A DNA stretch of 64,000 nt. Source: Atribacterota bacterium (GTDB taxonomy: Bacteria; Atribacterota; Phoenicimicrobiia; Phoenicimicrobiales; Stramentimicrobiaceae). Of this stretch, positions 588-31,007 are shown piece by piece. Below the pieces are notes generated by a model. The model had not been told where the DNA came from. It was given only the letters and a program-made list of their open reading frames with translations, and ran no database searches. How positions within the stretch are numbered: the stretch's first letter is position 1; each line of letters opens with the position of its first letter. A program made the translations under genes and the position numbers. The stretch covers positions 44,436 through 108,435 of the forward strand of contig JAQVMU010000001.1 of assembly GCA_028703475.1 (NCBI GenBank), in the 5' to 3' direction.

Positions 588-1322
588 GTGAATATGGACA
601 AGAGAATACAGTATGCATTTGAAAACTCGAAAATATTAAAATGGCCGAAGCAGCTTTTGTCTTCCTTTGGTTCCTCAGAAATACACTATCATGTTTTGAC
701 AGAGCCTGTTTACCAGGAATTTACCAAAGGAGATACCGAAACTGTTGTCAGAGAGGGAACAGTCAGCTGGCATCGTCCGCAGCTCTTAACACCAGGGTAT
801 ATTCTTCGAATTGAGGGCTTTAGTGATGAAGCCAGAAATGCTTTTTCTGAATTAGCAGATGAAATGCCTGATTTAGCCAGCATTTTATATCGTTTCCATT
901 TCAAAAGAGAAGTAGACTCAATGAACTTTGTTTCAGGAAATTTAGAAACTGTTGCAGATAAGATTGCAAGGGGCATCGAAAAAAGAGGAGATAATCTATC
1001 TGCTATTATTCAAGGAGTAGGAGATTTATGGGATATTTCACTCTCTAAATTTATTCTTGACATGATGACTAAAAGTGCGCGACAATCTCATTTTCCGGAA
1101 CTAAGAAAAAGAGGGCTGGTATCTTATAATCAATTTGGCCAGCAGGTAGTATCAAGAGATAACCAGGGTATTCCGCTTATTGCTAAAAAAGAAATTGAGT
1201 CAATGTTCCAGATGGTAAAAAATGGTGATATGGAACCCAGGGATTTAAAAAAGGAATTAGATCGTTGGGGATTATTTGAATTATATCAGGATCGTTTTTT
1301 CGATTTGTTCAGAAGGAGGTAA
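588..1322 (+). CDS. Hypothetical protein of 244 aa with no recognisable family motif; first gene of a two-gene cassette
   Basis: Long ORF with plausible codon usage and a GGGATAG purine-rich stretch before the ATG. Its stop lies 2 nt before the GTG start of the next ORF. No signal peptide or TM segment is apparent. Confidence 0.55.
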   Translation: MNMDKRIQYAFENSKILKWPKQLLSSFGSSEIHYHVLTEPVYQEFTKGDTETVVREGTVSWHRPQLLTPGYILRIEGFSDEARNAFSELADEMPDLASILYRFHFKREVDSMNFVSGNLETVADKIARGIEKRGDNLSAIIQGVGDLWDISLSKFILDMMTKSARQSHFPELRKRGLVSYNQFGQQVVSRDNQGIPLIAKKEIESMFQMVKNGDMEPRDLKKELDRWGLFELYQDRFFDLFRRR

Positions 1323-1324
1323 GT

Positions 1325-1918
1325 GTGGCAAAGATCAAATCAGCATTAGAAATAGCCATGGAAAAATCAAAAAAAATTGAAAAATTAAGTTCTCAGGAAA
1401 TGAATGAGATAAGACAACAAGAAAAAATTGATAGAATTTTAGCGAAATATTACAAAGACGAAATTGAGGCAGATGATTTATGGCGTCATCTAAAAGATAT
1501 TTCCAATAAAATGTTAATTAATGCACAAAATAACTTTCTTCAATCATTAACATTTCAAAGCAATGAATTTGAGATTGAAAAAAGAAAAAACGGAATACTT
1601 GCAATTGAAAACCTGAAAAATGACAATTTAACTTCAGACATTGAATTCTCTTTTGAGCAACTGGCCAAAATACGTACTGAGTTCAAAAAAAACAAAGAGC
1701 AATTGATGCAAATACTTCGAGAAGAGTTAGAAAGAGATCCCCAAAGGAGATTTCAGACATTTCAACAGGATGGTCAGATTGTTGTAAAACAATTAAGTAT
1801 GGAAGAAGCCATGGAACAGGATGAGCAGTTGAAGAAAAATTTAAAACAACTGGAAATACAATTCAGCAAAAAGTATAATACCGTTAAAGAAAAAATAAGT
1901 AACATTATTAACAATTAG
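1325..1918 (+). CDS. Hypothetical coiled-coil protein of 197 aa, rich in E, K and Q; second gene of the cassette
   Basis: GTG start preceded by AGGAGG. Heptad-like charged composition throughout. Followed immediately by a strong terminator hairpin. Confidence 0.5.
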   Translation: MAKIKSALEIAMEKSKKIEKLSSQEMNEIRQQEKIDRILAKYYKDEIEADDLWRHLKDISNKMLINAQNNFLQSLTFQSNEFEIEKRKNGILAIENLKNDNLTSDIEFSFEQLAKIRTEFKKNKEQLMQILREELERDPQRRFQTFQQDGQIVVKQLSMEEAMEQDEQLKKNLKQLEIQFSKKYNTVKEKISNIINN

Positions 1919-4615: not shown

Positions 4616-5140
4616 CTAAATCTCGCCTCTAACCTTAAAGAAGATAATGGCAAAATCCTCTATCATTCTATTTATATGATTTCTGGCTATCTGTTTTATA
4701 TCCTTTTCATCACAAATCCCAAGCACCTCATCAGTCCACATTTCGTACTTTTCGTAATTACCTGCCTTGCACTCAATAAGGTAGGCTATGGGTGAGTTCT
4801 CTCCTGCTATCCATACTCTAAACCAGATACTCCCTGCTCTTTTTGCTTTTTCCTCTTCCTGAAATATAGATGTTTCTTCTGCAGTTATTTCCTGATACTC
4901 AATACCGCTAAAATTATTCTTATATCTGAGTTTTGCATAATCCGTCAGCTCTTCGCTGCTCAATCCGATTCTTGGTGCCCGTTCTCCCTGTACTTTAACA
5001 TAAATATAACCAAAGGTTTCTATTTGTGCTAAATCGCCATATAGTATATCAGTAATATTTCTTTGAGCAGCAGCGTTTATACCGGCTAATAAGAAAGCTA
5101 CCATCAGGATGGAAATAACAATAACTATATTCCTGAACAT
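4616..5140 (-). CDS. Hypothetical predicted-secreted or membrane-anchored protein of 174 aa
   Basis: Hydrophobic N-terminus MFRNIVIVISILMVAFLLAGINAAAQ resembles a signal peptide. No recognisable domain. Confidence 0.45.
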   Translation of the reverse strand: MFRNIVIVISILMVAFLLAGINAAAQRNITDILYGDLAQIETFGYIYVKVQGERAPRIGLSSEELTDYAKLRYKNNFSGIEYQEITAEETSIFQEEEKAKRAGSIWFRVWIAGENSPIAYLIECKAGNYEKYEMWTDEVLGICDEKDIKQIARNHINRMIEDFAIIFFKVRGEI

Positions 5141-22383: not shown

Positions 22384-23352
22384 TTAATATTCAAATGAAT
22401 CTTCTACAGTAATTTTGTAACCGTTAATAAATTGAGAGACATCCATCTCTTTAGAACCAGGCAGAATAAGACGCTTTATTACTATGCTATCATCATCTCC
22501 CGTTAATACTTGTATACCTTTCTTACTTACATCTATTATATCTCCCGGCCTTTGGCTCTGTTTGATATGATTTGTGTTTTCCAGTGTAACCAAAGATGCT
22601 TTGGTTATTTTGATTCTTTTGCCTTTAAATTCAGTATAAGCGCAAGGAATATAGGCAATTCCTCTAATAAGGTTAAAAATGTCCTTACCGGTTTTACTCC
22701 AATCGATTCTACAGTCATCCTTGCATATTTTTCTTGCATAAAAATATTCTCCCTCTGCCTGGGAATACTTTTTATAATTGCCTTTTTTTAAACTATCAAG
22801 TATATCGGGTAGCATTTCCGCACTCTGAATGGAAAGTCTGTTACTTAATTCCAGATAATTTTCTCCGGGCAATATATTCACTTTTTTTTGTAAAATAATA
22901 TCTCCCGAATCAATCTTCTCACTCATAAATAAAAAACTTATACCGGTTTCTTTCTCACCCCGTATGATTGTCCACTGGACAGGTGCAGAACCTTTATAAT
23001 ATGGTAATAAGGATGGATGAATATTCAGACATCCCTGTACTGGTATTCCTAATACGTTCCTGGACAGTATCTGACCATAGGCAATTAAAACAATCAAGTC
23101 CGGTGAAAGTTCTTTAATTTTTTTAACGGAATCCCCGGAATTAATACTTTCTGGCTGATACAGGCTTAGTCCTGCATTGATGGCAGCCTCTTTTATAGGG
23201 GAAGGCTGCAGCTTTTTACCTCTTCCTGCCGGCCTATCCGGCTGAGTAATAACTGTTACTATCTCTTCTTCCAAAGAGATTAATTTTTCTAATACAGGAA
23301 CTCCGAATGCTGCTGTTCCTACAAATATAATTCTCACAACAAACCTCCTCAA
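22384..23352 (-). CDS. fmt: Methionyl-tRNA formyltransferase
   Basis: N-terminal formyltransferase domain (IIFVGT...NIHPSLLPYYKG) and position downstream of def. Confidence 0.9.
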   Translation of the reverse strand: MRRFVVRIIFVGTAAFGVPVLEKLISLEEEIVTVITQPDRPAGRGKKLQPSPIKEAAINAGLSLYQPESINSGDSVKKIKELSPDLIVLIAYGQILSRNVLGIPVQGCLNIHPSLLPYYKGSAPVQWTIIRGEKETGISFLFMSEKIDSGDIILQKKVNILPGENYLELSNRLSIQSAEMLPDILDSLKKGNYKKYSQAEGEYFYARKICKDDCRIDWSKTGKDIFNLIRGIAYIPCAYTEFKGKRIKITKASLVTLENTNHIKQSQRPGDIIDVSKKGIQVLTGDDDSIVIKRLILPGSKEMDVSQFINGYKITVEDSFEY

Positions 23353-23357
23353 ACAGG

Positions 23358-23843
23358 CTATTTAATCTCTTTTAGCTGATTTTTAATCATTATCCTTTTT
23401 GCAGGTCCAAGCCTATCTATAAAAAGATATCCCTCTAAATGGTCTATCTCATGCTGTAAGGCAATAGCCAAAAACCCTTCCCGGGTAATTTGAATCTTCT
23501 TTTCATCTAAATCAATTGCTTCTACAGTGACCGAGTATGATCTTTTTACCGGTGAATAGATTCCGGGCACACTTAAGCATCCCTCTTCTTCACTGGTTTC
23601 TCCCTCTCGTTTAACAATTTCAGGATTTATCAAGACAATGGGACCTTTATCCTCTGTATCAATTACAATTATTTTTTTGGAAACACCAACCTGGGGAGCA
23701 GCCAAACCAGCTCCTCCTTCGGCATACATTGTCTCAATCATATTGTTTACTAATTCCCTGATTTCATCATCAATTTTAGTTACCGGCATAGCCTTTTCTC
23801 TTAAAACCGGAGAACCATATTTGTGTAATCTTAAAATAGCCAT
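23358..23843 (-). CDS. def: Peptide deformylase
   Basis: The three PDF motifs GLAAPQVG, EGCLS and HEIDHL. Confidence 0.9.
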   Translation of the reverse strand: MAILRLHKYGSPVLREKAMPVTKIDDEIRELVNNMIETMYAEGGAGLAAPQVGVSKKIIVIDTEDKGPIVLINPEIVKREGETSEEEGCLSVPGIYSPVKRSYSVTVEAIDLDEKKIQITREGFLAIALQHEIDHLEGYLFIDRLGPAKRIMIKNQLKEIK

Positions 23844-23852
23844 TTCCTACTC

Positions 23853-25907
23853 CTAATACATTTTCATTGGATTAACATCAATTATTAATTTTACATCATG
23901 TGACCGATATTTTGAAATATATTTGGATAAACTGTCTTTAAAAAAATCCAGATCATTTTTTTCAGTATTTATCCTCATAATAAAACTTACCTTGCTATTA
24001 TATTTCTCCCGCGTAATAACTATATTATCCTTATCCAGTTGAAATCCTAATTCATATTTATTTATCAAATCAAGATGATTAAAGTATTGAATTAACTCGT
24101 CTGCATTTTTTTTTACATTTTCTCTTTTTTTTCCTAAAAAATCAATTTTTATCATCTGAGTAAAAGGGGGATAATCAAGCTCTTTCCTGATTAATAACTC
24201 CTGTTGATAGAATAACCTGTAGTTAATTTTTTCGATAGCCTGCAGACTATAATGTTCAGGCTGATAACTCTGTATTAATATCTTTTTTGCATCTTTTCTG
24301 GTACTATATTTCAAAGCCAGATTATAAATAAACTGAAATGTTAATTCAGCTGACCGGTAATCAGGGATATTAAGCAGATAATCCGCTAAAATTAATCCTA
24401 ACAGACCTACATTATCATATTTTACCTGCCTGAAAATAATCTGGGTTCCTATTAAAATATCAATTTTTCCTCTGTTAAATTCATTTATTATTTTTTTCTG
24501 TTCAATGGCACCGGGTGCATTATCGATATCAAGTCGACTGACAGTAGCTTTAGGAAACATTCTTTTTGTTAGCGCCTCTACATGTTGAGTTCCTGCTCCA
24601 ACCGGTTTTATTCTTCCTTTACCACACTTGGGACAATACTCTTCCATTCTTACTCTTTTTCCACACATATGACATAGAACAGATTTAATCTCACCAGTAA
24701 TGTGATAGGCTAAAATGTGATTACATTCGGGACATTTTATTACATGACCGCATTGAGAACAAACCATATGCCCGGCAAATCCACGCCTGTTTAAAAATAG
24801 TATGACTTTTTCACCTTTTTTCAGGCATTGGAGGATATTTTGTTGTAACTCGAAACTTATAATTCGCTGATATGCTTTCTCCTCTTTCAAGTCAACTAAT
24901 TTTATCTCAGGAAATATTTTCTGAGAATGTATCATTCGTTTTTCAGTTTTTAAAATATACTTATTATTTTCTGCACACCAATAACTATCCACTGAGGGAG
25001 TATGACTGCTTAGAATTACCTCTATTTTCTCTAATTTTCCCCTGCTTAAGGCAACATGTTTGGCATTATAGCGGGGCATTCTTTCTTCCTTATATAATAA
25101 TGAGTTTTCCTGCTCAACAATAATCAATCCTAAATCCTTAAAAGGAAGAAATATATTGGACCTGGTTCCAATTACTACATCCACATCACCTCTTTTTGCC
25201 TTCAGGAATCGAATATATTTTTCTGTTTGACTCACTTTTTTGTCAAATATCCCCAATTTAGCTCCATACCTGTTCGCCAGTTTCTTTTTTAATTCAGCAC
25301 AACACCATTGGTCTGGAACCATAATAAAAACCTGTCTTTTTCTCTGCAGTACCCTATTAATACATTTCCTGTAGAAACGATCTCTCAGGTTATGATTATT
25401 ATAATGAAACAAAAATGGTTTATCAGGGGCATCATTGTATTGCAATTCACTGTTTTCAGGCAAGGGGAATTGATTTTCTTTCTCTTCAAGAGTACTGATA
25501 CCATTATTTACCATGTTAATATCAACACCTGGTTGAGATTGGTTGTCTACTCCATTCTGAAGAAAAGCTAATATTTTTTTTCTTGATATCTTGGTAGGAA
25601 CAATATAATTCACAACAGTCCCTATTGGACATATATAATACCTGGAAATCCAGTCAGCCAAATCCAAAATTGATTCGGTTATTACAGGAATAGGGTCAAT
25701 TACCTCTTCAATATTTTTCAGGCTGGTAATATTGGTCTGGTAAATTTTTTTGGTAATAACACCGACTATCTGCTTATTTCTGAATGGAATTTTTACTCTT
25801 TTACCAATATCAGCTATATCCTCCATCTCAGGAGGTATATAATAATGAAAACCTTTGGTTAAATTGTTCCTTAATGGAATTATTTCTGCTACACTTTTCC
25901 TGCTCAT
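23853..25907 (-). CDS. priA: Primosomal protein N' (PriA) homologue whose Walker A, Walker B and motif VI are degenerate
   Basis: N-terminal 3'-DNA-binding domain. Zn-binding Cys cluster (CSQCGHVIKCPECN...CHMCG...CPKCG). Helicase motifs III, IV (ILFLNRRGFAG) and V (IDILIGTQII) are present. Motif I reads NNHNLRDRFY instead of GxxGSGKT, motif II reads VEQEN instead of DEEH, and motif VI reads NLALKYSTR instead of QVAGRAGR. Confidence 0.8.
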   Translation of the reverse strand: MSRKSVAEIIPLRNNLTKGFHYYIPPEMEDIADIGKRVKIPFRNKQIVGVITKKIYQTNITSLKNIEEVIDPIPVITESILDLADWISRYYICPIGTVVNYIVPTKISRKKILAFLQNGVDNQSQPGVDINMVNNGISTLEEKENQFPLPENSELQYNDAPDKPFLFHYNNHNLRDRFYRKCINRVLQRKRQVFIMVPDQWCCAELKKKLANRYGAKLGIFDKKVSQTEKYIRFLKAKRGDVDVVIGTRSNIFLPFKDLGLIIVEQENSLLYKEERMPRYNAKHVALSRGKLEKIEVILSSHTPSVDSYWCAENNKYILKTEKRMIHSQKIFPEIKLVDLKEEKAYQRIISFELQQNILQCLKKGEKVILFLNRRGFAGHMVCSQCGHVIKCPECNHILAYHITGEIKSVLCHMCGKRVRMEEYCPKCGKGRIKPVGAGTQHVEALTKRMFPKATVSRLDIDNAPGAIEQKKIINEFNRGKIDILIGTQIIFRQVKYDNVGLLGLILADYLLNIPDYRSAELTFQFIYNLALKYSTRKDAKKILIQSYQPEHYSLQAIEKINYRLFYQQELLIRKELDYPPFTQMIKIDFLGKKRENVKKNADELIQYFNHLDLINKYELGFQLDKDNIVITREKYNSKVSFIMRINTEKNDLDFFKDSLSKYISKYRSHDVKLIIDVNPMKMY

Positions 25908-27154
25908 TACAACAACATACCATTATGTCGGTTGCTAAGTTTTATTTCTATAATATTAAGAATATGTTCAGCTAACTTGTGCTTGGACATCAGTGGTAAA
26001 TCCTTTTTCTCACCTTCATTGTCAATAATTATAACTTTATTGGTATTAGTTCCAAATCCACTGTCTTTTCGGGTTATATCATTAGCTATGATATAGTCTA
26101 ACTTTTTTGTTTTTAATTTTGTTAACGCATTCTCCAGCAAATCCTGGGCTTCAGCAGCGAACCCTACTAATATCTGGTTTGTTTTTTTCTCTCCTGCCTC
26201 TTTCAAAATATCGATATTCTTTGCAAGCTTAACAGTAAATGTTTCCTGCCCTTCTTTTTTAATTTTTCCGGAATACTGTTTAACAGGTTTAAAATCTGCT
26301 ACAGCGGCTGCTGATATAAATACATCTGAATCCATAAAATAATTCATTACCTGTTTTCTCATCTCTTCTGCTGTAATAACATGGATTGTCCTGGCTCCAG
26401 GAGGATCCTGTAAACAGGTAGGACCGGTAATAAGTGTTACATCTGCACCATAGTTTACAGCTGTCTCAGCTAAGGCAAATCCCATCTTGCCGGTAGAATA
26501 ATTTGTTATAAACCTTACCCTGTCAATCGGTTCTCTTGTTGCAGAGGCTGATATTAATATTTTTTTATCTTTTAAATTATTCTTTCTGTTAATTTGCCCT
26601 TTTATAAAATTTACTATGTGAACAGGTTCAGCCATACGCCCATCTCCGTAATCCCCGCAAGCCAGATTGCCTGTTTCTGCATTAATAAAGTAATATCCCT
26701 TTTCTGTTAAGTATTTGACATTATCCTGATAAATAGAGTTATTTATCATTACAGTATTCATTGCAGGAGCCAGGTATACTTTTCCCGGAAAAGCCAATAC
26801 AGTTGAGGTTAATATATCATCTGCCATCCCGTTAGCCATTTTGGCAATAGTATTTGCCGTAGCAGGAGCAATGATTATCAAATCAGCCCATTGAGCCAGT
26901 GAGATATGCCGGATTTCCTCCTCTTCCCTGTTAACAGAAAACAACTCAGTATATACCCTGTTTTCACTTAAAACCGCCAGGGTAAGGGGCGTAATAAAAC
27001 GCTCTGCGTTGTTGGTCATCATTACCTTAATGCTGTGCCCTTCTTTTTTTAATAATCGTATTAATTCAGCACTCTTATAAGCTGCTATTCCACCTGTTAT
27101 TCCAATAACAATATTTATTTTTTTATTATTTTCTTTTTCTTTTTCTTCAAACAT
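25907..27154 (-). CDS. coaBC: Bifunctional phosphopantothenoylcysteine decarboxylase / phosphopantothenate-cysteine ligase
   Basis: N-terminal flavoprotein domain (GITGGIAAYKSAELIR). C-terminal CoaB domain. Position upstream of priA. Confidence 0.88.
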   Translation of the reverse strand: MFEEKEKENNKKINIVIGITGGIAAYKSAELIRLLKKEGHSIKVMMTNNAERFITPLTLAVLSENRVYTELFSVNREEEEIRHISLAQWADLIIIAPATANTIAKMANGMADDILTSTVLAFPGKVYLAPAMNTVMINNSIYQDNVKYLTEKGYYFINAETGNLACGDYGDGRMAEPVHIVNFIKGQINRKNNLKDKKILISASATREPIDRVRFITNYSTGKMGFALAETAVNYGADVTLITGPTCLQDPPGARTIHVITAEEMRKQVMNYFMDSDVFISAAAVADFKPVKQYSGKIKKEGQETFTVKLAKNIDILKEAGEKKTNQILVGFAAEAQDLLENALTKLKTKKLDYIIANDITRKDSGFGTNTNKVIIIDNEGEKKDLPLMSKHKLAEHILNIIEIKLSNRHNGMLL

Positions 27155-27265
27155 ATTCCTGACCGGTATCTTTCACTAAAATTGTATTACTTAAATATGA
27201 TAATTCGTTTTATAATCATTATTTTAATAATACCATATATAACAAATAATATAAAAACTATAGTC

Positions 27266-29210: not shown

Positions 29211-31007
29211 ATGAAATTAGACAGTATTGCAATAGCTTCTGTTGTGTTTGAAACAAAAAAAAATATAATTCCGGCAAAAATTATCGAGTTATACCAGCCA
29301 AGCAAATATGAAATTCTATTTGTATTGAAATCTAAAAAAGGTATCGGGAGACTTTTTTTCTCAATCAGACCTGATAGGATGGCTTTTTTTAGAAGTGAAT
29401 CCCTGATACCGTCAGAAAATTTTACATCACTATTTTTCAATCATCTGCAAAACTGGTTACAGGGAGCAGATCTGTTAGACATTGAACACTATCAATTTGA
29501 TCGGATAATAAAACTAATTTTTCAGCCTTATATTAAATTCGGCACTACAAAAAATTATCAACTGATAATTGAGTTTATGGGCAAACACAGTAATGCTGTT
29601 CTGGTAGACGAACAATTAAATATTAAATCCGCCATAAAACAGGTTGGCTCAGAAGTAAACCGTTTTCGGGAGATTAAACCGGGTATTCCCTATGTTTATC
29701 CACCAAAACAGGATAAGCATAATCCCTTATCCATTAGCCAGGAAATGTTTTTAAACTTATTAAATGATGATATTAAAAATAATGATATTATATTTTTTTG
29801 GCAATTCCTGCAGCATAATTTTAGCGGATTAGGTAAAAAAAGCGCGAAAGAGATTGTGACTGCCATGGGCTTATCTTCTCAATATTATTTAAGAGAGTTT
29901 AGCCAGGGAGATTATGCCAGAATGTGGCAATTGTTTTCTGAGGTTGTCAATAAAATTGCTAATAATATAATGTTTCCTGCTGTAATTATTGATAAGAAAT
30001 CCAATAATATACTTGATTACTCCTTGCTTTCTCCTGTAACGAAAAAGGAGGATTCCATTGTTGTTAATTTTAAGGAAACATCTAATTGCCTTGAATTTGT
30101 ATTTAACAGGTTAACCGAACAGGATAAAAAGAAAGAATTATATCAAAATATTAATAAAATTTTAAACAAGAATATAAAAAAATTTGAGAAAATGAAAAAT
30201 ATTTTCCAAAAAAAGAAAAAGGATATAGAAAGCAGTGAAGAATACCGCAAAAAAGGTGAGTTAATAAAGGCAAATCTTTATCGTATTAAACCCGGCGTGA
30301 AGGAGGTTTCCCTTGTTGATTATATTGATAATGAAAAAGAAATAATTGTGAGTTTAAATCCGGATTTTAATCCTGTTCAAAATGCAGAATATTATTTCAA
30401 TAAATATAAAAAGTTGCAGCAAAATAGTAAAAATATAAAACAACAGGCTGAGGAAACAGAAAACGCTTTTCGCCAGTTAGAGGAAATAAGAAAAAAAACT
30501 GAGGAAAATAAAGATTCTCTGGAAATTCTTTCTGATATTTACAAAGAACTTTCCAAATCAGGATATATTAAAACTGAAAAAAGAAGAAATACAAAAAGAA
30601 AAAAGCCACAACCCAATATAAGTAAGTTCATTTCTCCAGATGGATGGACAATAATTGTTGGAAAAAATAATAAACAGAATGAATATCTTTTAAGATATTT
30701 ATCTTCCGGGAATGATTTCTGGCTGCATAATCTAACCAGCCCCGGGGGACATATAATTATAAAAAACCACAAAAATCTGGATAATCCTCCATTTCAAACT
30801 CTTCTTTTTGCAGCTCGCTTAGCAGGATATTACAGTAAAATTAAAGATAAAGAATATGCTATTATTATTTACACTCAGAGAAAATATGTTAAAAAACCCA
30901 AAAACTCCAAACCGGGAAAGGTAATTTATTCTAATGAAAAAACTCTGCAAATATTAATAAATCATGATGAGATTAAAAATGATATGCATAAAATGTGGAC
31001 TGGCTAA
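29211..31007 (+). CDS. rqcH: Ribosome-associated quality control protein RqcH (NFACT family; FbpA/YloA fibronectin-binding-like)
   Basis: About 600 aa. N-terminal NFACT-N-like region. Long K/E-rich coiled coil. C-terminal NFACT-R motif (DFWLHNLTSPGGHIIIKN). Sits next to the yloC-like block as yloA does in Bacillus. Confidence 0.7.
   Translation: MKLDSIAIASVVFETKKNIIPAKIIELYQPSKYEILFVLKSKKGIGRLFFSIRPDRMAFFRSESLIPSENFTSLFFNHLQNWLQGADLLDIEHYQFDRIIKLIFQPYIKFGTTKNYQLIIEFMGKHSNAVLVDEQLNIKSAIKQVGSEVNRFREIKPGIPYVYPPKQDKHNPLSISQEMFLNLLNDDIKNNDIIFFWQFLQHNFSGLGKKSAKEIVTAMGLSSQYYLREFSQGDYARMWQLFSEVVNKIANNIMFPAVIIDKKSNNILDYSLLSPVTKKEDSIVVNFKETSNCLEFVFNRLTEQDKKKELYQNINKILNKNIKKFEKMKNIFQKKKKDIESSEEYRKKGELIKANLYRIKPGVKEVSLVDYIDNEKEIIVSLNPDFNPVQNAEYYFNKYKKLQQNSKNIKQQAEETENAFRQLEEIRKKTEENKDSLEILSDIYKELSKSGYIKTEKRRNTKRKKPQPNISKFISPDGWTIIVGKNNKQNEYLLRYLSSGNDFWLHNLTSPGGHIIIKNHKNLDNPPFQTLLFAARLAGYYSKIKDKEYAIIIYTQRKYVKKPKNSKPGKVIYSNEKTLQILINHDEIKNDMHKMWTG

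Follow-up and report, generated by a model that had tools for sequence, protein, structure and literature searches.

A PriA orthologue with degenerate helicase motifs in Atribacterota, probably retained as a pseudohelicase

The priA locus

The stretch of DNA analysed here (the window: 64,000 nucleotides (nt) of contig JAQVMU010000001.1 from an Atribacterota bacterium) contains an open reading frame (ORF 23853-25907) which encodes a homologue of the replication restart protein PriA with degenerate helicase motifs. The window has a GC content of ~33% and represents core chromosome: it carries gatA/B, ligA, dprA, the priA block, ileS, divIVA, a branched-chain amino acid transporter, nrdRDG and the dcw cluster. 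Positions of the gene, its neighbours and its domains are listed in Table 1.

The initial annotation had called the product a PriA homologue, and profile, structure and fold comparisons all agreed with it. The ORF matched TIGR00595 ('replication restart helicase PriA') with 410.9 bits (cutoff 230.35), and this match begins at position 14 of the model, directly past the P-loop. The scores with the lineage-specific NF0040xx equivalog models were below the cutoffs of these models, and a Pfam scan of the ORF gave no match to DEAD or ResIII. A phmmer search of the Protein Data Bank (PDB) retrieved PriA chains of E. coli and Klebsiella (6dcr, 8fak, 4nl4; E ~1e-76), and the predicted fold, described below, is that of PriA.

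The gene has the genomic position seen for priA in other bacteria. The stop codon of coaBC and the start codon of priA overlap by 1 nt (TAATG, 25905-25909), and because this overlap recurs in most of the relatives examined (e.g. L004, L008-L011, L013 and L014), it suggests that priA is translationally coupled to coaBC. The wider context (ileS...yicC-remA-gmk-coaBC-priA-def-fmt-rsmB-PASTA-dprA) is identical in relatives at 99%, 60%, 57%, 45% and 38% identity. Both subclades of the Atribacterota sequences (see below) share the neighbourhood yicC-remA-gmk-(rpoZ)-coaBC-priA-def-fmt-...-rsmB-PASTA-dprA; the genes are therefore orthologues, and the loss of the motifs predates the split of these lineages. 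The coaBC-priA-def-fmt context, from which the gene had originally been judged to be the orthologue, thus extends across both subclades. In the basal lineage represented by P0042, gmk and coaBC are separated by rpoZ (RNA_pol_Rpb6; L015:5768-6142). In the window (27155-27265) and in the closer relatives the interval between gmk and coaBC is only ~112 nt long and contains no ORF, rpoZ having been moved or lost there.

Table 1. Positions of priA, its neighbours, and the domains and motifs of its product in the window (numbering of the window; aa, amino acids; pLDDT, predicted local distance difference test)
Feature	Position	Strand	Residues (aa)	Remarks
fmt (methionyl-tRNA formyltransferase)	22384..23352	-		
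def (peptide deformylase)	23358..23843	-		downstream neighbour
priA orthologue, catalytically degenerate (putative pseudohelicase)	23853..25907	-		684 aa, ATG start, TAA stop
coaBC	25907..27154	-		upstream neighbour; flavoprotein and DFP domains in orthologous loci
3′-DNA-binding domain, retained	25593..25907	-	1-105	PF17764
Short, poorly conserved linker replacing the winged-helix domain	25422..25592	-	106-162	from pLDDT and length
RecA-like helicase lobe 1	24918..25421	-	163-330	fold kept, catalytic motifs replaced; confident in AlphaFold2
Former motif I / Walker A	25371..25406	-	168-179	HYNNHNLRDRFY; no P-loop glycines; K230 to R175, T231 to D176
Former motif Ia	25299..25316	-	198-203	PDQWCC, was PEIxLT; from alignment
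Former motif II / Walker B	25104..25121	-	263-268	IVEQEN; D320 to E, E321 to Q, E322 kept, H323 to N
Post-motif-II loop	25050..25094	-	272-286	YKEERMPRYNAKHVA; strongly conserved with intact PriAs (E. coli YKQQEGWRYHARDLA)
Motif III remnant	24996..25010	-	300-304	SSHTP (E. coli GSATP); from alignment
Motif IV, fully conserved	24774..24800	-	370-378	LFLNRRGFA; from alignment
Cys-rich region	24612..24767	-	381-432	four CxxC pairs, two Zn sites; from alignment
RecA-like helicase lobe 2, second part	24228..24611	-	433-560	confident in AlphaFold2; within-clade identity 0.62
Motif V, half kept	24417..24458	-	484-497	ILIGTQ retained, AKGHHF to FRQVKY
Former motif VI	24300..24323	-	529-536	NLALKYST; R584, R587, G583 and G586 lost
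Putative C-terminal domain, predicted to be folded, divergent	23856..24137	-	591-684	from AlphaFold2 and PF18074

Replacement of the helicase motifs

We aligned the product of the ORF with E. coli K-12 PriA (taken from NC_000913) and 63 homologues, using MAFFT. In the alignment HYNNHNLRDRFY of the window protein stands opposite the Walker A segment of E. coli PriA, AGVTGSGKTEVY, which starts at residue 223. GSGKT is replaced by HNLRD; relative to E. coli the changes are G224 to Y, G227 to H, G229 to L, K230 to R and T231 to D. Among the 36 members of the core Atribacterota subclade (see below) the arginine and Tyr169 are invariant (36/36 each) and the aspartate is present in 34/36. The clade consensus of motif I reads F(H/Q)YxxYxxRD(R/L)YY.

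In motif II the residues 265-EQEN-268 correspond to 320-DEEH-323 of E. coli, and the core subclade has the Glu in 35/36 and the Gln in 28/36 sequences. The motif is degenerate, as annotated, with the register of the original reading off by one: DEEH is replaced by EQEN, not DEEHD by VEQEN. The third catalytic motif, motif VI, is likewise lost: 529-NLALKYST-536 aligns with 580-QVAGRAGR-587, and G583 is changed to L, R584 to K and R587 to T. For motifs I and VI the alignment bore out the degeneration that had been described.

Motifs III, IV and V had been listed as conserved, which is true of motif IV; motifs III and V are only partly kept. In motif III the Ser is retained and A357 is replaced by His in the window protein. 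T358 is kept in the window protein but is Ala in 30/36 members of the core subclade, so that SAT reads SHT in the window protein and S(F/G)A in those 30 members. Two losses go beyond the initial annotation: the winged-helix domain is missing (see below) and motif Ia is replaced, with PDQ(W/F/H)(S/C)C conserved clade-wide in its place. In SF2 helicases motif Ia contacts the DNA backbone.

The sequences flanking each lost motif align collinearly with PriA. A six-frame scan of the gene and 300 nt on either side detected neither a Walker A pattern (G(x)4GK[ST]) nor a DExH pattern. The collinear alignment, combined with the absence of a motif in any frame, excludes a frameshift or sequencing error, the circumstance under which the degeneration might have been only apparent.

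Since all P-loop glycines are lost, T is replaced by D in motif I, D by E, E by Q and H by N in motif II, and both arginines of motif VI are missing, a canonical ATP site could not exist in the Atribacterota PriA. The same residues invite another explanation: the protein might be a nucleotide-binding switch derived from PriA, dead in hydrolysis and still capable of binding ATP, ADP or some other ligand, be it in a remodelled pocket made up of R175, D176, E265, Q266 and E267 or in a second weak site, and the ligand would regulate fork binding or partner release. The E321 to Q replacement is a classic Walker B change, which blocks hydrolysis and not binding, and the K to R replacement keeps the positive charge, but in the P-loop all glycines are replaced by bulky Y/H/L/V/E residues and the Mg2+ ligand T231 is Asp. 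With both motif VI arginines gone and the Pfam DEAD and ResIII models no longer matching, there would be no canonical phosphate-binding loop. The replacement residues are near-invariant in a clade of only 43-60% overall identity, and a review cites evidence that E. coli PriA has a second nucleotide site, which is weaker (PMC5778457); against this, the PriA of D. radiodurans, which has milder changes, shows no ATPase activity (PMC4504706). On balance we consider such a switch improbable, and favour a PriA in which the motor is simply dead.

Retained domains and predicted structure

The 3′-DNA-binding domain (3′BD) and the Cys-rich region (CRR), both described as conserved in the initial annotation, are indeed retained. 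PF17764 (PriA_3primeBD) matched with 81.1 bits versus a cutoff of 22.7 (5.6e-23). Y18 and K61 are residues of the 3′BD pocket (PMC5778457); the equivalent of Y18 (Y22) is invariant and that of K61 (K64) is kept in 35/36 sequences. D17 is changed to H or Y in the clade, and the same change is found in some intact PriAs. In the CRR all 42 sequences keep the eight cysteines equivalent to E. coli C436, 439, 445, 448, 463, 466, 476 and 479, and the Pfam Zn_ribbon_PriA match is marginal.

The loop following motif II (YKEERxPRYNA) has invariant K273, E274, E275, R276, P278, Y280 and A286 in the alignment. We take this loop to be the DNA-contacting, aromatic-rich loop of PriA. Residue numbers assigned to the pocket for the tail of the single-stranded DNA-binding protein SSB (W82, Y86, K370, R697 and Q701) did not match the E. 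coli numbering in the alignment and were not used.

An AlphaFold2 model, computed with the clade alignment, had a mean pLDDT of 84.2 and a predicted template modelling score (pTM) of 0.84. In a Foldseek comparison with the PDB the top nine hits were all PriA, and the best one was 8fak_H, in which E. coli PriA is in complex with PriB and a fork (template modelling (TM) scores 0.78/0.82). The C-terminal domain (CTD) is predicted to consist of beta-alpha-beta elements (pLDDT ~85-92); its PF18074 (PriA_C) match, 21.1 bits, is below the cutoff of 26.9, and the model as a whole can be aligned with PriA structures.

In E. coli PriA the winged-helix domain comprises residues 109-181 (PMC5778457). The segment between the 3′BD and lobe 1 is 32-61 residues long in the clade (57 in the window protein) versus 115 in E. 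coli, has a within-clade identity of 0.25, and is predicted to be disordered between residues 120 and 160 (pLDDT <50). The best single-stretch PDB match is the construct 6dcr, which lacks the winged-helix domain. From the predicted disorder and the far shorter length of the segment we conclude that the winged-helix domain is absent from the Atribacterota PriA.

When compared with canonical PriA (primosomal protein N′; TIGR00595, COG1198; 4NL4, 6DGD, 8FAK), the Atribacterota protein thus has in common the 3′BD, two RecA-like lobes, motif IV, probably the CTD, an eight-Cys, two-zinc CRR inserted in lobe 2, an overall fold matched at TM 0.78-0.82 and the coaBC/def/fmt neighbourhood. It differs by the lack of the catalytic motifs I, II and VI, of motif Ia and of the winged-helix domain, and by its length (684 versus 732 aa).

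Distribution and selection

A database search yielded 44 clusters at 36-99% identity, from independent assemblies (ENA, JGI, NCBI and Logan). With the exception of P0039, none had a Pfam DEAD match. Motifs I and VI are degenerate in every relative whose sequence covers both regions; the degeneration is thus shared by close relatives and by the whole sampled Atribacterota PriA clade. The source names, where credible, were 'Atribacterota' or 'Candidatus Caldatribacteriota', and cluster look-ups found no cultured isolate among the clade members. Two names deviated, probably because of binning errors in public metagenome-assembled genomes (MAGs). The sequence from an 'Arcobacteraceae bacterium' MAG (P0124, 684 aa) belongs to the >=90% identity cluster of P0001, which is 99% identical to the window protein, and that from an 'Elusimicrobiota bacterium' MAG (P0018) is nested inside the Atribacterota clade.

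In a neighbour-joining tree (no bootstrap) the 42 degenerate sequences formed one clade with two subclades. The core subclade (P0002-P0037 and the window protein) mostly has VEQEN as motif II. The basal subclade (P0039-P0044, also named Atribacterota) has lost Walker A and motif VI, and its motif II is still D(Q/H/R)EH, EREH or DREN. Arginine stands at the position of the Walker A lysine in 36/36 core and 4/6 basal members. The less altered motif II of the basal subclade makes it likely that the loss began with motifs I and VI. In the tree of the sampled sequences, the sister group of the clade includes PriAs (P0047 and P0052) whose Walker A is intact, whose motif II reads TDEH and whose motif VI is degenerate; they may represent intermediates or a decay of their own. 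The context of P0047 is different (L017:6001-8037): UDG is upstream, Cu-oxidase_4 downstream, and coaB and coaC are separate genes nearby.

The ratio of nonsynonymous to synonymous substitution rates (dN/dS) was determined by the NG86 method for three independent pairs of orthologues at 87-89% identity (dS 0.29-0.40, unsaturated). The values for priA were 0.157, 0.203 and 0.159; the control, def, gave 0.076. Pooled per domain, dN/dS was 0.17 for lobe 1, 0.10-0.13 for lobe 2, 0.10 for the CRR, 0.22 for the 3′BD and 0.28 for the CTD. The within-clade identity of lobe 1 (0.61) equals that of the other domains, and the replacement residues themselves (RD(R/L)YY, PDQxxC and VEQENS) are near-invariant. 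The window gene and the 99% identical contig L008 differ in eight codons (four synonymous, four nonsynonymous), which are too few for dN/dS. The gene, including the dead lobe, is under purifying selection.

Clade-wide motif loss together with purifying selection makes a retained non-catalytic role far more likely than decay. That the degeneration reflects faulty sequencing or assembly, a frameshift, or a pseudogene decaying under relaxed selection is scarcely credible, and we rejected it: the ORF is uninterrupted over 684 codons and collinear with PriA, hides no motifs, is found in the same state in independent assemblies, has a dN/dS of 0.16-0.20 and is transcribed (see below).

Copy number and expression

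The 64-kb window contains neither a second priA nor a gene for a helicase loader, and no intact PriA labelled Atribacterota was found among the matches listed. For the phylum, which has been described as comprising two classes, a published KEGG Orthology (KO) table lists the counts of K04066 (priA) in 44 genomes: one in 40, two in three and none in one; the count is one for Thermatribacter velox B11, whose genome is complete in a single contig (PMC11227167, Table S6). In the same table the dnaT row has no counts, and recG is present in most genomes. The table shows that the Atribacterota priA is a single-copy gene.

These data bear on the possibility that the gene is a non-catalytic paralogue, and that an intact PriA helicase is encoded at another site of the genome. 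The window covers no more than 64 kb, and three of the 44 published genomes have two K04066 hits. The KO table nevertheless largely removes this concern, with exactly one priA in 40/44 genomes, the complete B11 among them. Furthermore, in all lineages examined it is the degenerate gene that stands at this priA locus, with no intact counterpart among the matches listed or in the window, and duplicate counts can come from split gene calls. Two PriA fragments of one cluster, P0350 (218 aa) and P0352 (378 aa), lie on the same NCBI contig of 552,031 bp, and such split or frameshifted calls could explain the count of two in the three genomes. We regard a paralogue as very unlikely, and proceed with the degenerate gene as the only priA.

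The Atribacterota priA is transcribed. In Atribacter laminatus, RT761_00100 ('Primosomal protein N′') was expressed at 2.5-2.7 times the median RPKM (reads per kilobase per million mapped reads; PMC7736352, Supplementary Data 3), and transcript values are available for priA in two MAG metatranscriptomes, with the same fmt-def-priA-coaBC context (PMC11227167).

Other replication genes in the KO table also show irregular counts. The gene of the Pol III delta subunit, holA (K02340), has a score of 0 in the first 24 genomes and of 1 in the remaining 20; dnaQ has a count of zero in all but five genomes, and the split of recD is similar to that of holA (PMC11227167, Table S6). In part of the phylum the replisome annotation looks unusual, or too divergent for the KEGG models, which would fit a divergent PriA.

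Other genes in the window

A gene encoding an NFACT_N/NFACT-R_1 protein (598 aa, an RqcH-like ribosome quality-control factor) is located at 29211-31007 on the forward strand, opposite to an otherwise co-directional block; its position is conserved in all Atribacterota loci examined. Three ORFs, 588-1322 (+), 1325-1918 (+) and 4616-5140 (-), encode proteins of 244, 197 and 174 aa which matched no Pfam family at E <= 1e-5. The 244- and 197-aa ORFs run against the direction of nearly everything else in the window, in a region of reversed GC skew.

Degenerate PriAs in other lineages

An exhaustive profile search covered 1.84 billion representatives, and the motifs were scored in the best 150 matches by the patterns GK[ST] and RxGR. 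Among these, 12 representatives from outside Atribacterota lacked both GK[ST] and the motif VI arginines (P0181, P0195, P0197, P0199, P0214, P0218, P0238, P0251, P0297, P0307, P0308 and P0323; one is from Omnitrophota), and five further ones were partly degenerate. Ordinary variants such as ASGKT and DEEQ also occur among the 150. Most of the 12 dead PriAs have intact nearest neighbours, and Fitch parsimony on a neighbour-joining tree required at least 7 state changes.

The winged-helix domain is missing from 12 of 13 dead PriAs (including P0016 from Atribacterota) versus 32 of 132 intact ones (Fisher p = 1.9e-6), in a sample that is biased by a search profile itself dead and devoid of the winged-helix domain, in which several clusters are singletons, and by a test that ignores phylogeny. 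The intact PriAs without the domain include e.g. Omnitrophota representatives; the winged-helix domain is not universal to the PriA family. The data suggest a link between recurrent loss of the PriA motor and a short architecture without the winged-helix domain, which is a lead and not a result. A bolder proposal would be that motor loss is recurrent in many uncultured phyla and that in Atribacterota Y169, R175-D176, E265-Q266-E267 and PDQxxC form a new latch for a partner or ligand; we hold it only tentatively and think it rather doubtful. If it were true, a sizeable fraction of bacterial diversity would use a distinct, helicase-independent form of replication restart.

Proposed function

The initial annotation had suggested a PriA retained only as a scaffold for primosome loading. 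The motif loss is real, the 3′BD, the CRR and the scaffold are kept, the state is clade-wide and the gene is under selection, all of which support a retained non-catalytic PriA. We propose that the sole PriA orthologue of Atribacterota is probably a pseudohelicase: an ATPase- and helicase-dead scaffold for fork recognition and primosome loading. The observations from which this proposal starts are the motif loss, the fold, selection, orthology, copy number and transcription.

In the proposed mechanism ATP would be neither bound nor hydrolysed in the canonical site, and the protein would not translocate or unwind DNA. The 3′BD, the surface of the helicase core and the CRR would recognise an abandoned fork or a D-loop whose junction carries a 3′ end, and PriA would serve as a passive platform, which recruits the replicative helicase onto the exposed lagging-strand template, directly or via a loader or SSB. 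E. coli PriA-K230R acts in this way in the PriA-PriB pathway, and the same has been proposed for the PriA of D. radiodurans. Unwinding of the nascent lagging strand, if any, would be a task for a different helicase, e.g. RecG. The winged-helix domain helps PriA to bind forks without a 3′ end (PMC5778457), and its absence may bias the protein towards substrates whose junction has a 3′ end, such as D-loops, or forks in which the leading strand reaches the junction.

Results obtained with E. coli are consistent with such a role. The K230R mutation (priA300) is by itself sufficient to abolish the ATPase, helicase and translocase activities, yet priA300 cells are almost like wild type and the mutant protein supports restart in vitro; only the PriA-PriC route and some special substrates depend on the helicase activity (PMC5778457).

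These E. coli data also speak to the possibility that the protein was neofunctionalised away from restart, for example to a structural or regulatory DNA-binding protein, and that restart in Atribacterota is PriA-independent. The changes in motifs which contact DNA (Ia and the second half of V), the missing winged-helix domain, the lack of known partners of the PriB/DnaT type in Atribacterota (the dnaT row again being without counts) and the unusual cell biology of the phylum, with a membrane apparently enclosing the nucleoid (PMC7736352), would all be compatible with a departure of this kind. However, it is the restart-specific parts which are best conserved (the Tyr and Lys of the 3′BD pocket, the eight-Cys CRR, motif IV and the post-motif-II loop), and the genomic position is that of other bacteria. 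Moreover, a helicase-dead PriA suffices for restart in E. coli (PMC5778457), and the pseudohelicase of Deinococcus binds forks and DnaB (PMC4504706). Neofunctionalisation is therefore unlikely in our view, and a restart scaffold remains the preferred function.

Several points weigh against the pseudohelicase scaffold. We infer the absence of ATPase activity from the replaced motifs, as we infer fork binding and the identity of the partners from the retained domains. With motif Ia changed, the core may bind single-stranded DNA in another manner than E. coli PriA does. The genes for DnaB, a loader and SSB lie outside the window. The invariant R175, Y169 and E267 could form a new binding site for a ligand or partner, and not merely a plugged pocket. 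The three genomes with two K04066 hits may have a real paralogue. Finally, the connection between 'single-copy and expressed' and 'degenerate' rests on all sampled sequences labelled Atribacterota, not on the B11 and RT761 sequences themselves.

Relationship to known PriA pseudohelicases

The concept of a PriA pseudohelicase is already known from the PriA of Deinococcus-Thermus (PMC4504706) and from E. coli priA300 (PMC5778457). The D. radiodurans protein has the K to R change and poor Walker A and B motifs, shows neither ATPase nor helicase activity, and binds single-stranded DNA, forks and DnaB (Lopper, Boone & Morrow 2015, PMC4504706). Like the Atribacterota gene, it is a chromosomal orthologue with degenerate Walker A and B motifs, an Arg in place of the Walker A Lys and a preserved DNA-binding architecture; the loss is lineage-wide at the phylum level, and PriB/DnaT partners are known for neither group. 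The Atribacterota belong to a different, unrelated phylum, and their PriA is degenerate to a greater extent: the P-loop glycines are missing, T is replaced by D, the motif VI arginines are lost, motif Ia is replaced, motifs III and V are half lost, and there is no winged-helix domain. The lack of activity was shown by assay for the Deinococcus protein, and is predicted for that of Atribacterota. In the sampled trees, which contained no Deinococcus sequences, the nearest neighbours of the Atribacterota clade are intact PriAs, which argues that the motor was probably lost independently of Deinococcus-Thermus.

The priA300 allele carries the same K to R change at the Walker A lysine as R175 of the Atribacterota protein, and the mutant protein performs PriA-PriB restart and primosome assembly without ATPase, helicase or translocase activity. 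It is, however, a single engineered change in an otherwise intact helicase that has the winged-helix domain and can rely on PriB, DnaT and PriC, whereas the Atribacterota PriA is natural and multiply substituted. The combination of priA300 with a priB-null mutation is lethal-like in E. coli, because the PriA-PriC pathway needs the helicase activity (PMC5778457).

A literature search for Atribacterota or Atribacter together with PriA or primosome found no paper, and a search for Walker A degeneration in actinobacterial PriA found nothing. The Atribacterota protein represents, as predicted from its motifs, a new, more extreme and phylum-wide PriA pseudohelicase, the second case after Deinococcus-Thermus.

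Implications

Subsurface and anoxic habitats are rich in Atribacterota, of which two isolates are in culture, A. laminatus RT761 and T. velox B11. With about a dozen further lineages at hand, a phylogeny-aware survey of dead PriAs would be worthwhile. The two isolates offer natural, tractable systems in which to ask which helicase, if any, substitutes for the lost motor and how DnaB is recruited without PriB or DnaT. The only PriA of Atribacterota is stripped of its motor even more thoroughly than that of Deinococcus-Thermus, and yet it is conserved, single-copy and expressed; it strengthens the case that the essential job of PriA is fork recognition and helicase recruitment, and not unwinding.

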